Part shown: piece after piece, positions 1,846 through 59,700 of the stretch | How positions within the stretch are numbered: the first letter of the stretch is position 1 | Layout: each line of letters starts with the position of its first letter | Source of the DNA: Scenedesmus sp. PABB004 | Taxonomy: Eukaryota | Direction of reading: 5' to 3' | Assembly: GCA_014905635.1 (NCBI GenBank) | Contig: JABVCE010000002.1 | Location: 1,984,001 to 2,048,000 of the forward strand | Length of the DNA: 64,000 bases | The notes under the pieces: generated by a model | What the model was told of the DNA's origin: nothing | Database searches by the model: none | What the model saw: the letters and a program-made list of their open reading frames with translations, nothing else | Position numbers and translations under genes: made by a program

Positions 1846-4800
1846 ATGGCGGACGACGTCGAGAAGGCCATCCTCATCACCTTTGGCGCCGGCGGCGGCG
1901 ACCAGGCGCTCAAGGCGCGCGCGGCGCGGCCGGCAGGCGCCGCGCGACGCGGCCAGCGGCGGCAGCGGCGCGCGCCGCCGCCCGGCCGCCGCGGCCGCCG
2001 CGGACGCCCGCCGCGCCGGGGCGCGCAGGAGCGCGCGGGGGCCTACATCGCCAGCATCAAGGCCTCCCCGGAGCTCTGGAAGCTCTGCGCGGAGCGCTTT
2101 TCGAGCACGGCGTACCCGGAGGTCAAGTTCTGGTGCCTGCAGACGCTGCACGAGGCACGGGCCGGGGCCGCAGCGGGCGTGCAGGAGGGGCCGCGCCCAG
2201 GCGCGGGCGGCCCACGCGCCCGCCGCGCTGCCGCCGCCGCAGGGGGTGTGCGCGTGCTACACGCAGCTTGACGAGGGCACGCGCCAGCTGGTGCGCGCCT
2301 CCGCGCCCGCGCCCGCGCCTATGTGCGCCTGCGCCCGTGCGCGCGGCCGCCGAGCGCGCCCCCGCCCGCGCCGCCGCCGCGCGCGCTGGCCCGCAGGTCA
2401 AGGGCGCGCTGCTGACGTGGCTGCAGCGCGACTGCACGTCGGAGGGCGCGCCGCTGCCGCCGTTCCTGCGCAACAAGCTCGCGCAGGCGATCGTGGCGGT
2501 CGTGAAGCGCGAGTACCCGGCCCAGTGGCCGAGCTTCTTCCGCGAGCTCTGCGCCGCCGCGGGCAGCGGGCCGGGGCTGGCCGACATGTTTGCCCGCATC
2601 ATGGTCGCGGTCGACGAAGACGTCATCAGCCTCGACATCCCCCGGTGCGCACCCGCGGGCGAGGCGACGCAGCGCGGCGAGAGCGCGCGCACTCTTTTAG
2701 CCCTCTCTTTTTGACTCGGCCGGCTGGCGGCGATGCGCGGGCGCGGCGGCGGCGGCGGGCGGTGGCTGGCGGCGGCGTGACAGCGCCGCGCCGCGCCGCG
2801 CCGCGCCAGGTCTGGCGAGGAGACCAAGCTCTCGATGCACCTCAAGGACAGCATGCGCGAGCAGTGCATCGGCGAGGTGCGCCGCGCGGGGGGCGACGCG
2901 CGGAGGGGCGACGCGCGGCACGCGCGGCGCGCGGCCCGCCCGCCGGCGGCGGTGCGCCGAGCGCGCGCCCATGCCCGCGGCTGCCGGTGCGCGCAGGTCG
3001 CGGGCGCGTGGTACAGCGTGACGCAGGCGTACAAGGGCAGCCGCCCCGAGCTCGCGGCGTTTGTGCTCGGGTCGTGCGCGCGCTACGTGCACTGGATGGA
3101 CATCGGTCTCGTCGCCAACGACAGGCGCGCGCTTGGCCGGCCGGCCGGCCGCGTAGCGTGCTGCCGGCCAGCCGCGCGCGTCACGCTGCAGTGCGCGGCC
3201 CGCCGACCCGTCGCCGCGCTGCGCTGCCGGCTGCCGCTTCCCCTCGCAGGTTCATCCCGCTGCTCGCGGAGCTGATGGACCACCCGAGCCCCGCGCTGCG
3301 CGGCGCGGCGACCGACATGCTGGCCGAGGTCGTGAGCAAGCGCATGGAGCCGACCGCCAAGATTGCGCTCGTGGAGCAGCTCAAGGTCGTGGAGTCGTGC
3401 GAGCGCCTGAGCGCCAACCTCATCGCCGCCGCGGGCGCGGCGAGCAAGGCCGGCGCGCCCGGCGCCGGCGCCGCGGGCGCGCCGGCGGGGCCCAAGCGCG
3501 GCGAGCCGGACGAGGAGCTGCTGGCAAAGTACGCAAAGCTGCTCGCCACGCTCGCGGGGGAGGTCATGGACGCGCTGAAGCGCGTTGAAAACGGTGCGTG
3601 TGCGGCGTGCGCCCGCGGCGCGGCGCGGCGCGCGGCGGGGGCCGGCGTGTCGCCGCGGCGGCGCCCCGCCCACGCCGCCTCCGCCGCCGCCGCCGCTGCC
3701 GCCGCCCACCGCCTGCCGCGCGCCGCCGTGCACATCAGTCGTGATCAGCTTCAACGTCACCGGCCTGGGCGTGGACGACGAGGCGGCGCGCGACGCGACG
3801 CACGCGGCGCAGGCGGCCAACCGCCTGCTCGCGTCGCTGACCGCGGCGGTGCTGACCGCGTTTTGCAGCGGGCTGGAGACGATCGCGATGCCGCTGGTGC
3901 CCTTCATCGGTGCCTATGTGGCGCGCCTGCGCGCTCTTGCCAAGCGCGGGCAGGCGCTGCCGGCGGGCGCGCAGATGCACCTCGCGGCGGTGCTCGAGGG
4001 CGTCGCCGCGGCGGCGCGCTACCCCGACGGCGGCGCGAACGAGGCCGAGGACGGCGGCGCCGGGCCGGGGCTCGGCGGCGGCGGGTCCGGCGGCAGCCGC
4101 GGCGGCCGGCCGCGCCTGAGCGACGCCGACCTGCTCGCGGCGCGCGAGGAGCAGTGGGAGGTCGAGGAGCGGCGGCGGGAGCTGCTGGTGCTGCTGAAGA
4201 ACGCCGCCAAGCTCGCCTTCCCCGATGCGCTCAACTTTGTCGCGTCGCGCCTGCAGGCCGCGCTCGCGGCGGGCGAGCCCGGCAGCGCCGGCGGCGGCGC
4301 GGCGCCGGGCGGAGGCAGCGCCGGCGGCGGCGCGGCCAACGGCGCCGCCGCGGGCGCGCCGCGCGCGGGGTGCGGCGGCGGCGGCGCGCGCTTCCAGGAG
4401 GCCGAGATCGCGGTGACGCTGCTGTACGAGCTGGGCGAGGGCGCGCCTGAGGACGCGCTCAAGCCGGGGCGGGGCGGGTTGGCGCAGCTCGTGCTGCTCC
4501 TCGTCGGCCGCGCCGGCGGTCTGCCGGCGGGCGGGCACCGCCTCGTCGCGCTCGCGGTGCTGGAGACGTGCGTGCGCTACGTGCGCGTGCTGCAGCAGGA
4601 GCAGAGCGCCATCCCGCCGGTGCTCGCCCTCTTCCTCGGCCCGCGCGGCCTGGGGCACCCCTCGCCCGACGTCGCGACGCGCGCCGCCTACCTGCTGTCG
4701 CGGCTGGTCAAGACGCTGCGCGCCAACCTGCGCCCGCTCGCGGCGGAGGTGCTCTGCGAGCTGCAGCCGCACCTGCTCGCCGTCGCGACGCGCCCGCCGC

Positions 4801-56700: not shown

Positions 56701-59700
56701 AGCGGCGCGACGCGCGGCACGCCGGCATCGCCGCCCGCGGCCCCCGAGTCGGCGTCCGAGCGCGAGTCGTCGTCCGAGAGCAGGTCCGAGCCGTCACCGG
56801 GGGACGTGCGCCGCCGCAGCGGGTCCGTGTACTCCTCGCCGCCGCCGCCGGCCTCGCCCTCGCTGCAGCAGGGCGCGCTGCGCGCGCTCGCGGGGCTGCC
56901 GGGCTCGCCCGCAGGCTCGCTGGAGCCCTCGCCGCCGCCCGCCTGCGACGGCTGCTGCGTCTGCTGCTGCTGCTGCTGCTGCTGCTGCTGCGTCTGCGCC
57001 TGCGTCTGCGTCTGCGTCTGCTGCGTCTGCTGGCTCTGTGCCTGCGCATGGTGGTGGTGGTGGTGGTGGTGCGCGGCGGCCGCGGCCGCGGCCGCCGCCG
57101 CCACCGCATGGCGCTGCTCGATCTCCAGCGCGTCCGGCACCACCACGTGCGGCGACAGGCTCAGCAGCAGCCGCGCGTCGCTCTCCAGGCCCGCCGGGTT
57201 GGTGGCGTCGCGCGAGGCGCGCACCGCAGCGCGCGCCAGCGAATGGAGCAGCGCAGCGTCGCCGGCGGCCTCTGCACGCGGCGGGCGGGCAGCGGCGGCG
57301 CGGTGAGGCGGTTAGGAACCTTGCCGCGGCGCCGCCGCGGCCCCAGAGGTCGCGGCCGGGCCCGGGGGGACTCCACCGCGGTGCGGCACCGCGCGGCGCG
57401 CACCTGGCGCCGCCAGCGCCGCAGTGGCCAGCGCGAGCTCCTCCGCGAGGAAGCTGCACTCCAGGCCCTGGTGGTAGGCTGCCAGAACCCCGAACCGCAC
57501 CACGCGCTTGAGCTTGGTCAGCTCCGACGCGCTGCCGCCCCAGAGCAGCACCGTGCAGCCCAGCGGCAGCGGGCAGCCGTCAAACAGCATCAGCGTCTTG
57601 GCCGCCGCCGGCGTGGCGCTCACGGGCGCCGCCCGGGCGCCGCCGCCCGGGCGCGGCGGCGCGGCAGCCGCCGCTGCCGCCCCGCCGCCCTCGCCGCCGC
57701 CACCGCCCTCGCCGCCGGCGCCGCCAGCGTCGAGCGCCGCCAGCGCTCCGCTGCTGGCGCTCTGCGAGACCCCCGGCTGCTGCGGCTGGCCGCTGGCGCC
57801 GCTGTTGGGCGCCGGCAGCGGCGTCACCTTGAAGTGGCTGCAGCTTCCCACCAGCGCCGGCGACAGCTCCTCCACCGACGGCGCCACCTTCAGCGGCGGC
57901 GCGGCGTGGCCGGGGCAGCGTCAGCAACTGCGCGGCGGCTGCTGCAGCAATCGCGCGCGCGCGCCCGCTGCCGGCGGCGTGTCACGCCGGGCGCCCCCGC
58001 GGCGGCGCGCCTTGACGCCCATGCAGCGCCCCAGGCGCTCCAGCAGCTCCGGCTTGGTGTGCTGCACCAGCGCGATGCCCCGGGCCAGCAGCTCCTCCTG
58101 CGCGCCGCGTGCCACGCTGCGCTCCACCAGCAGCAGGTCGGGCCTGGCGCCGCGGCGGCGGCGGCGGCGGCGCGTGCCGTGGGCGCGCGCGCCGGCGCGG
58201 CAGCGGCGGCGCGCGCGCCGCCAGCGCCCCCGGCGGTGCGCACTTGAGCGACGCGACGCGCGCGACCGCGAGGCGCAGGTGCTCGCGCTCCTGCTCCAGC
58301 AGCGTGTCAAAGCTGGACAGCCGGTTGGCGACACGCTGGTACTCGAGCGCGCCGGACAGCAGCAGCACCGCGGGCGCGGCGATGTCGGTGCGCATGCGGC
58401 GGTGCGCGACGTTCTTCTTGGCCACCACGCCCCGCACGACGCGGCTGTCCCCCGGCGCGCCCATGTCCGGCAGCGCCTTGACCTGCGGCGCCGACGCGCA
58501 GCGCAGCCCGGCGCGGCGCGGCGGGCGGTGGGCGCGCGCCCACGGCGGGCGCGGCGGCGGCGCGCGGGCGCGGGCGCGGGCGCGGGCGCGGGCGCGGGCG
58601 CGGGCGCGGGCGCGCGCTCCCGAGCCGCGGCGCCCGGGCCGCGCCTTGACGTAGAAGCGCGGGTCCTGCTCCCCAAACGCGGCGGCCGCGGCCGGCAGGA
58701 GCGCGCGCGACGCCTCGCACACGAGCCGCAGCACGACTGGCAGCCACGCCTCGGCCCCCGCCACCTCCTCGGCCTGCAGCAGCTGCCACAGCAGCGCGCG
58801 CAGGTGCGCGTCGGCGGCGGCCCCCAGCTCCTGCCGGTTGAGCAGCACCAGCGGGTGCAGCCCGCTGCTGGCCGGAGGCTGCTGGCCGCTGGGACTGAGG
58901 GGGAGCTCCGGCGACGCCGCCCCGGCCGCCTCTGGCTCGCCGTCGCCCGCCTCGGCCGCCGGCGCGCCCGCGTCCCCGGGCTGCTGCTGCTGCTGCTGCT
59001 GCTGCTGCTGCTGCTCGGCGAGCGCCTCCGGCGGTGGGCCGAACGTGCGCTCCAGCACCGGCGGCACCTCCCACGTGAGGGACCCGTCCGAGCCGCTGGC
59101 GCCGCGAGAGGCGGAGTGCCGGAGCTTGCTCGGCGACGACGGGCCACGCCCGCCGGCGCCGCCGCTCTCGTCGGTGCGCCTGCGCATGCGCGCGTGCGGG
59201 CGGTGCCTCGGCGCGCGGCGGGCGGCTGCAGGCAGCCCGGCAACCAACAGCCGAGCTGCTGCGCTAGCTGCAGGGCCAGTCCCGTCGCGCTGCGCGGGCC
59301 GCGCACCTGGCGGCGCCCTCGGCCGTGCGCTGCACGCTGCCCAGCAGCAGCTGCTCCGCCGCGCCCTGCTGCGCGCGCTCCGCGCTGTCGTCATCGCACT
59401 GCCGCATGCGGTGGCCTGCGTGCGCGCAGCGCGCGGCCGCGGCGCGTCAGAGGCCGGCCCGCGGCGCAGCGCCCGCCCCGCGCCGCCGCGCTGAGCTCAC
59501 AGTAGTTGCATACGCGCAGCCAGCTCTGGTCCGCGGCGTCGCGCGGCGCGGGGATGGCGTTGGCGGTGCAGCCGGCGCAGAAGATGCGGCCGCAGATGCG
59601 GCAGTGGTGGCGGCGCACGAATACGCTGAACGGCGTCTCGCACTCGTAGCACGCCCGGCACGTCGCGTCGTCAACCCAGTAGTCTTTGCCCGACTGCCCG

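Follow-up and report, generated by a model that had tools for sequence, protein, structure and literature searches.

Why does this stretch of a green alga's genome open so many of its introns with GC? The preliminary description of the window (the whole 64-kb stretch of DNA analysed here) had counted by hand 23 GC-AG introns among roughly 120 and attributed them to extreme GC pressure acting where the preceding exon ends in AG. The window has a GC content of 78.7% (about 79%), and the named homologues nearest to the host come from the Sphaeropleales (chlorophyte).

Predicted GC-AG introns and their homology support

Gene models predicted from the DNA together with homology comprise 19 genes and 121 introns; a doubtful POLH junction near 10.9 kb and a doubtful gene at about 450-1400 were kept out of the count. 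The modelled introns divide into 98 GT-AG and 23 GC-AG, giving a GC-AG share of 19% (95% CI 12-27%) in this single 64-kb window, against an expectation of 1.2% (p=7e-21). The GC-AG introns are spread over housekeeping genes, 11 of the 19 modelled. Modelling and hand count agree to the coordinate, and AG/GC (the slash marking the exon-intron boundary) is present in the sequence at all 23 donors (Table 1). At the level of protein homology, the excess of predicted GC-AG introns is confirmed as real.

Homologues tested 17 of the 23 donors and supported all of them, one weakly; for the other six, the basis is reading frame and motif. Fourteen junctions (three in XPOT, two in MSI1, four in kinesin, and five in FAB1) were each subjected to spliced alignment against homologue profiles. 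When GC was allowed, the alignment chose exactly the previously named donor at 14 of 14 junctions, and a donor-blind mode did so at 13, with a near tie at 55614 (72.3 vs 72.0). A GT-only mode scored lower at every one of the 14, by just 3 units at 56670. For PSMA2, EBP1, and NOP58, PDB alignments make the flanking exons contiguous. The closest GT alternative in NOP58 would add at least 17 residues, while a consensus-like GT lying 9 nt downstream of the EBP1 donor would add 3.

The six donors that homology left unsettled are POLH 8881, NIPA 19730, 20505, and 20958, FUT8-like 28542, and MRNIP 38872. Pfam searches with 13 exon pieces matched five, which did not fix the NIPA, MRNIP, or POLH junctions. 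At POLH, the IMS profile crosses the junction with an overlap of about 6 positions and the downstream exon is anchored at V83 of human Pol eta; the short upstream exon had no match in PDB, and a candidate alternative GT 6 nt upstream lacks +5 G. The exon upstream of MRNIP 38872 matches PF15749 positions 2-41. Retention of the NIPA intron at 20958, whose surrounding exons had no Pfam match, would leave an open insert of 35 residues, and retention of the FUT8-like intron one of 46; a search for a GT alternative to the FUT8-like donor found none.

Whole-gene spliced alignment also proposed introns with GC or other donors within low-complexity inserts (kinesin 31863-32130 and several in FAB1), which were dropped because leaving them in does not interrupt the frame and they have no anchoring homologue. 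Further non-AG GC donors from an ab initio model, likewise in low-complexity regions, were dropped as well; rare donors of this kind may exist in poorly conserved regions. A metagenome scan with an MSI1 homologue as query returned 80 loci, nearly all of them uninterrupted reading frames, and was left out of the analysis. A scan of a viral collection found nothing, and an Rfam search of the 64-kb window gave no match.

Table 1. Predicted GC-AG introns of the window, with the evidence for each
Gene and intron	Phase	Positions	Strand	Basis and remarks
XPOT (exportin-T) intron 1	0	1915..2028	+	spliced alignment
XPOT intron 2	0	2155..2242	+	spliced alignment; relative P0254 has Val (GT)
XPOT intron 6	2	3125..3249	+	spliced alignment
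POLH (DNA polymerase eta)	0	8881..9014	+	frame and motif
NOP58	0	16998..17149	-	PDB contiguity, 260/261
NIPA-type Mg transporter	2	19730..19800	+	frame and motif only
NIPA-type transporter	2	20505..20608	+	frame and motif only
NIPA-type transporter	0	20958..21062	+	motif and gene model only
PSMA2 (proteasome alpha-2)	0	24241..24371	+	PDB contiguity, chain 159/160
EBP1/PA2G4	0	27264..27453	+	PDB contiguity, 312/313
FUT8-like	1	28542..28679	+	motif and gene model only
Kinesin-II	2	31712..31824	-	spliced alignment
Kinesin-II	0	32184..32307	-	spliced alignment
Kinesin-II	2	34198..34316	-	spliced alignment; 114 homologues contiguous at junction
Kinesin-II intron 1	0	34828..34972	-	spliced alignment; AAG acceptor; relatives P0002, P0009, P0018 have Val (GT)
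MSI1/RBBP4	0	36472..36584	-	gapless alignment
MSI1/RBBP4	2	37239..37320	-	gapless alignment
MRNIP-like	0	38872..38986	+	frame and motif
FAB1/PIKfyve	0	51480..51637	-	spliced alignment; relatives P0267, P0413 have Val (GT)
FAB1	0	55506..55614	-	spliced alignment (donor-blind near tie)
FAB1	2	56564..56670	-	homology weak; required by frame
FAB1	0	57888..58010	-	spliced alignment; AAG acceptor
FAB1	0	58483..58644	-	spliced alignment

Sequence rules at the donors and acceptors

The proposal that a GC donor always follows exonic AG was borne out: AG precedes all 23 GC donors as opposed to 38 of the 98 GT donors (Fisher p=1.8e-8). The same rule appears in three genes aligned without exon-side scoring, at 9 of 9 GC and 5 of 21 GT donors (p=1.4e-4). 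That GT donors accept any exon end stood only in part; most do without AG, but they are not free in this respect, since 85 of 98 carry G at -1.

On the intron side, +5 G is invariant (121 of 121 introns). The GC donors read GCGC, GCGG, ACGG, GAGC, ACGC, or GCGT from +3 to +6, so that a typical donor is AG/GCGCGC, and no GCATCC-like donor occurs among the 23, which are therefore not U12-type (motif as in PMC1557818). Their U1-complementary match is present at the exonic AG (23/23) and at +5 G and absent as a rule at +4 and +6, where A and T occur in 2/23 and 1/23, respectively, leaving almost no intronic compensation. An excess of +3 A is marginal (3/23 GC donors vs 0/38 AG/GT donors, p=0.049). 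Among the GT donors, +4 A occurs in 1/38 after AG and in 16/60 otherwise (p=0.002). The mean match to the nine-position consensus is 4.96 for GC donors, 5.04 for all GT donors, 5.61 for AG/GT, and 4.68 for non-AG GT, a pattern consistent with the prediction of a threshold model.

Acceptors across the 121 introns comprise 119 CAG, 2 AAG, and no TAG. GC and GT introns are similar in length and composition, branch-point motif counts do not differ between the donor classes, and no GA donor was chosen at the well-aligned junctions.

Origin of the GC donors

At three of the GC positions (Table 1), read-through proteins of relatives reveal how the homologous intron opens, and in 6 of 6 cases it opens with Val (GT). 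Judged from this first read-through residue, GT would be the ancestral state at the three positions, and old donors would have been converted from GT to GC. At FAB1 52337, an AG/GT donor in the window for which 12 others have Val, the protein of one relative (P0286) starts with Ala-Arg-Ala, a case consistent with donors flipping in other algae too.

The composition of the window is strongly biased in the corresponding direction. Intron interiors contain 47% C and 5-6% T, GCGCG outnumbers GTGCG within them by 545:43, and third codon positions are 95% GC. From intron interiors, about 93% of AG donors would be expected to carry C at +2 under neutrality, compared with 38% (23/61) observed. GC donors are still selected against, even after AG; our rough estimates of selection against +2 C are about 3.0 at AG donors and above 5.3 elsewhere. 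Conversion with exonic compensation, as initially proposed, gains from the GT state in relatives and from the equal mean match of GC and GT donors, but its wording that conversion occurs wherever exonic AG compensates was too strong given the shortfall from 93%.

We consider it probable, at roughly two chances in three, that these are U2-type GC-AG introns of the major spliceosome in which GC pressure places C at +2, tolerated only where exonic AG compensates. A genome-wide push toward G and C, by mutation bias or GC-biased gene conversion, would turn the +2 T of existing donors to C. Each such change would cost one U1 base pair and hence be tolerated only after exonic AG, which may strengthen pairing with U1 and U5 loop 1, with the invariant +5 G retained throughout. 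C would be mildly disfavored even after AG, leaving about 40% of AG donors as GC and no others seen. Both the direction and cause of the change and the pairing mechanism, acting within an essentially standard spliceosome, are what we infer from these patterns. GC content has also been proposed as the cause of GC donors in other algae (available parts of PMC3033335 and PMC4028052).

Animal and plant GC donors have a better consensus match on both sides of the junction (PMC1557818), and the near-absence of intronic compensation here could point to a more permissive machinery. GC pressure would then supply changes on which a standard spliceosome is inefficient, and the reading of +2 would be relaxed by adaptation at the 5' splice site, whether in U1 itself (its sequence or a modification), in U1-C/LUC7, in U6 m6A/SNRNP27K, or through reliance on U5 loop 1. 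An adapted U1 snRNP had been raised as a possibility in the preliminary description. The typical AG/GCGCGC, with about 5 of 9 consensus matches, lends this some weight, and modifications or U1 proteins are suggested for Aureococcus and M. pusilla in the accessible part of PMC3033335, which also describes the U1 5' end of both as canonical. However, the strict AG rule and the selection against C indicate that +2 is still read, and GT donors are equally weak in total. Such adaptation, although compatible with conversion under GC pressure, is on balance unlikely. We hold as equally doubtful a re-tuned recognition in which the frame AG/G.....G(+5) suffices through exon pairing with U1 and U5 while +2 is only weakly checked.

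Insertion rather than conversion would apply if the GC introns were recent introner-type transposons using an AG target site, comparable to the GT- or GC-ended introners of pelagophytes. A target-site duplication would leave AG ahead of the donor, and elements with either donor are known in Pelagomonas (10.1101/2021.10.25.465678, as far as its available text goes). The three positions shared with relatives that have GT largely refute this origin for 3 of the 23; the other 20 gave no read-through either way. An all-against-all BLAST of the 121 introns yielded no GC-GC pair among the 16 matches listed, which are GT/GC or GT/GT pairs with 71-100% identity over CG-rich stretches. Exon ends and intron ends agree over 3.1 nt in GC introns and a comparable 2.6 nt in AG/GT introns, and the two donor classes match in length and composition, making an introner origin very improbable. 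In Aureococcus and M. pusilla, many GC introns derive from introners; unlike there, old donors appear to have been converted here.

GC donors might instead be weak sites selected for regulated retention or alternative splicing, or C-to-U editing might turn them back into GU. In animals and Arabidopsis, alternatively spliced genes show an enrichment of GC donors (PMC2490688), and intron retention is extensive in Emiliania (available part of PMC4028052). Here, however, they are scattered across housekeeping genes, are rarer than the neutral expectation instead of enriched, and have no GC counterpart in relatives at the three positions with read-through evidence; editing, for its part, would need no AG rule. 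We regard both versions as improbable, slightly less so than introners. Least probable of all is that T in the AG-GT context was consistently misread as C during sequencing or assembly. Sequence of very high GC is prone to errors, yet of 19 conserved Val codons after AG in the XPOT, MSI1, and kinesin coding sequences, 18 are still Val and none is Ala, and 38 AG/GT donors remain in the identical context.

Consequences and comparison with known GC-AG systems

A gene finder that accepts only GT-AG introns would disrupt or misrender 11 of the 19 modelled genes, so chlorophyte genomes of very high GC are likely misannotated. For Monoraphidium neglectum (65% GC), the public annotation contains just 19 major non-canonical junctions in 67,746 introns (PMC6310983, supplements), suggesting that existing surveys would miss the effect in Sphaeropleales. 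GC donors in Monoraphidium were not found in the text and four supplement files of PMC5556983, and we found no report of a GC-AG excess in Sphaeropleales or chlorophycean algae in the openly accessible literature that we searched. The present case extends the excess to Chlorophyceae, apparently through conversion of old donors and not through transposons, and adds a clean rule (obligatory exonic AG and invariant +5 G, but no compensation within the intron) together with rough estimates of selection. Its tractable relatives of lower GC make such a green alga a favorable setting for testing why GC donors are tolerated in some GC-rich genomes. If recognition were re-tuned, converted donors in their thousands, each with a GT orthologue in relatives of 57-72% GC, would form a natural series, which could reveal the spliceosome change permitting GC donors, a question left unanswered in Aureococcus and Micromonas.

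In animals and plants, ordinary U2-type GC-AG introns make up 0.4-1.2% (PMC1557818, PMC2490688, 10.1101/428318). There, as apparently here on the exon side, the +2 mismatch is compensated elsewhere, and orthologous introns often switch between GT and GC in both, but GC-AG introns are about 16-50 times commoner in the window, with exon-only compensation and an intron consensus of GCGC. "Exceptionally frequent" is thus apt relative to plants and animals and not relative to GC-rich algae, with published shares of 8-65%. The available part of Parker et al. 2025 (PMC11732430) distinguishes AG//GU donors (U5 loop 1) from NN//GURAG donors (U6 ACAGA). Similarly, exonic AG is anti-correlated with +4 A among GT donors here and every GC donor falls in the AG class; unlike in that scheme, both classes here have an invariant +5 G, and C predominates at +4.

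Closer parallels come from algae. According to the accessible text of Iwata and Gotoh 2011 (PMC3033335), GC-AG shares reach 39.6% in Aureococcus anophagefferens, 22.2% in Micromonas pusilla, and 7.7% in Chlorella sp.; GC content alone is a poor predictor, as a Micromonas pair of similar GC differs (22.2% vs 2.7%). The window resembles these genomes in its high GC, a share far above 1%, and canonical AG acceptors, and M. pusilla, also a green alga, has an almost equal share. It differs in that the host is chlorophycean, at 79% GC compared with at most 69.5%, and in an absolute exonic AG rule, of which that text gives no report. In Emiliania huxleyi, GC donors dominate (56-65%; Feldmesser et al. 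2014, available part of PMC4028052). Attribution to genomic GC, retained AG acceptors, and ab initio models that mis-call junctions are common to both, whereas Emiliania reaches a GC majority at only 65% GC and also uses GA donors, and GC donors here are a minority confined to AG-ended exons. The GC-AG excess is therefore of a kind known in GC-rich algae, to which the window adds another example rather than a novel type of splicing.

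GC-AG introns in the curated gene models

The window has a GC content of 78.7% and is tightly packed with intron-rich eukaryotic genes, among which kinesin-II and exportin-T (XPOT) have their best named homologues in Scenedesmus, Tetradesmus, and Raphidocelis, which makes a green alga of the Sphaeropleales the most probable host. Combining homology with a small ab initio model, followed by curation, we obtained 19 genes containing 121 introns, 98 GT-AG and 23 GC-AG (19%; CI 12–27%); one POLH junction and one unmodelled gene lie outside this set, and GC or other donors predicted solely within low-complexity inserts were excluded from the count. 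The preliminary description's hand count of 23 GC donors in roughly 120 introns was accurate, and all 23 of its donor positions carry exonic AG followed by GC.

We aligned homologous proteins to the DNA with a spliced aligner whose scoring is limited to the two terminal dinucleotides, leaving the exon end unscored. With GC permitted, MSI1 aligns without gaps over 415 residues and 8 introns, whereas GT-only alignment has to insert 10 residues and delete 2; kinesin and XPOT behave in the same way. At individual junctions, the exact donor originally proposed was picked in 14/14 cases with GT and GC permitted and in 13/14 in donor-blind mode, while restriction to GT lowered the score at all 14. 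PDB alignments of PSMA2, EBP1, and NOP58 place the exons flanking the GC intron on consecutive residues. EBP1 has the sole GC donor with a consensus-like GT nearby (9 nt downstream), use of which would insert 3 extra residues that are missing in homologues. Six donors (three in NIPA and one each in POLH, FUT8-like, and MRNIP) were based on reading frame and motif; if these introns were retained, four would shift the frame and the remaining two would add open stretches of 35 and 46 residues. The claim that GC donors are required to rebuild conserved proteins is borne out, and the excess of GC-AG donors confirmed, at the level of protein homology.

Several other features of the window are included in the table. 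Core alpha-1,6-fucosylation is not known to be typical of green plants. The two duplications represent either a recent tandem duplication or an assembly artefact.

Splice sites and other features of the window (P-numbers denote fetched homologous proteins)
Position	Strand	Feature	Observation
2155	+	XPOT GC donor	Read-through of P0254: Val (GT)
10723–11060	+	POLH 3' part	Required frameshift fits an intron whose length is 2 mod 3, or assembly indel
10948	+	Possible 24th GC donor (POLH), outside the count	Sole fitting donor with preceding AG and +5 G; acceptor 11048 or 11009
28247–30979	+	FUT8-like gene	Strong match to alpha-1,6-fucosyltransferase FUT8 domain (PF19745, E=7.8e-24, one exon)
34828, 57888	−	AAG acceptors	Only two in 121 introns
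34972	−	Kinesin GC donor	Read-throughs of P0002, P0009, P0018: Val (GT)
36375		MSI1 intron, GT after AG	Read-throughs of P0211, P0212, P0218, P0220 begin with Ala, which suggests GC donors in another lineage
40266–40922		Tandem array	167-nt unit, 3.8 copies, 96% matches; adjoins lower-GC stretch (74–75%) without modelled gene
44651–45893, 46336–47577		Duplication	1.24 kb, 99.6%; contains start and upstream region of a gene labelled SBP-like from its predicted translation
46058–46334, 47579–47856		Second duplication	278 nt, 98%
51637	−	FAB1 GC donor	Read-throughs of P0267, P0413: Val (GT)
52337		FAB1 GT donor	Relatives: 12 Val, 1 Ala-Arg-Ala, 1 ambiguous
56670	−	FAB1 GC donor	Weak score difference in GT-only mode

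Exonic AG and the donor consensus

Exonic AG precedes 23 of 23 GC donors, compared with 38 of 98 GT donors (p=1.8e-8), and the proposed rule that every GC donor follows AG holds throughout the curated set. Three genes aligned without exon-side scoring give 9/9 for GC versus 5/21 for GT. Position +5 is G in all 121 introns, a base missing from the majority of GT sites that could stand in for a nearby GC donor. Because positions +3 to +6 are alike in both donor classes (mostly GCGC), intronic compensation is almost absent from the GC donors. Mean matches to the 9-nt consensus are 4.96 for GC donors and 5.04 on average for GT donors, indicating that AG offsets the cost of C. Among GT donors, A at +4 occurs in 1/38 after AG and in 16/60 otherwise (p=0.002). 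At the other end of the intron, AAG acceptors occur in 2/23 GC-AG and 0/98 GT-AG introns (p=0.035), and no TAG acceptor was found among the 121.

Probable conversion of GT donors and residual selection

In some of the fetched proteins the gene caller has read on into an intron, and the first intronic residue then reveals a phase-0 donor. At 3 of the 23 GC positions such relatives are available, and all six read-throughs begin with Val; two of them traverse the entire intron and rejoin the next exon. The GC introns formed no sequence family. A T-to-C artefact is unlikely, since 18 of 19 conserved Val codons that follow AG still encode Val and none encodes Ala. Taken together, GT in relatives at three positions, the lack of a GC-intron family, and the improbability of an artefact argue that existing old donors underwent conversion.

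Intron interiors contain GCGCG and GTGCG at 545:43, and third codon positions are 95% GC. Neutral expectation for C at +2 is ~93%, against an observed 38% of AG donors (23/61) and 0/60 of non-AG donors. Under mutation-selection balance, assuming equilibrium and neutral intron interiors, scaled selection is ~3.0 (2.5–3.6) at AG donors and >5.3 elsewhere. Because C at +2 falls below its neutral level, GC donors in this window appear to be tolerated but not free of selection. The best reading, to which we assign a probability of about 0.65, is that GC pressure would turn existing GT donors into GC, with exonic AG making up for C at +2. Conversion and compensation are supported as originally proposed, but the idea that GT gives way wherever AG compensates goes too far, as most AG donors retain T. 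An adapted spliceosome is a possible but less likely explanation; Iwata and Gotoh (PMC3033335) describe the U1 5' ends of Aureococcus and Micromonas pusilla as canonical.

Comparison with other GC-rich genomes

The following comparisons draw on parts of the cited sources. An excess of GC-AG introns is itself already known from GC-rich algae: Iwata and Gotoh give shares of 39.6% in Aureococcus, 22.2% in Micromonas pusilla, and 7.7% in Chlorella, tie them to genomic GC, and term their origin an enigma. Emiliania, with 56–65% GC donors, has also been explained by genomic GC (PMC4028052), and the plant mean is 1.2% (10.1101/428318). In mammals, donors in strong contexts are described as changing from GT to GC (PMC2490688), a weak correlation between genome and splice-site GC is reported (PMC7072748), and Pelagomonas introners bear GT or GC donors (10.1101/2021.10.25.465678). 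The portions consulted of PMC5556983, PMC5966456, PMC8226300, and PMC12571836 hold no donor information, and our literature search found no report of GC donors in Sphaeropleales, although subscription papers or supplements may contain one.

This case stands out for its lineage, for a strict AG rule that comes with no intronic compensation, and for what it means for annotation. Table 1 of PMC12571836 lists 7,092 annotated genes for the most GC-rich Sphaeropleales genome (78.5%), 13,429–17,867 for other previously published genomes, and 6,874–13,568 for seven new drafts; the 78.5% GC genome is also credited there with the most gene-family contractions. Overlooked GC donors could contribute to its low gene count.

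Whereas animal and plant GC donors show intronic compensation (PMC1557818, in the part consulted), there is almost none here. The avoidance of +4 A after AG-ended exons matches the two-class donor pattern outlined in PMC11732430, in whose scheme all GC donors of this window belong to the exon-pairing class.
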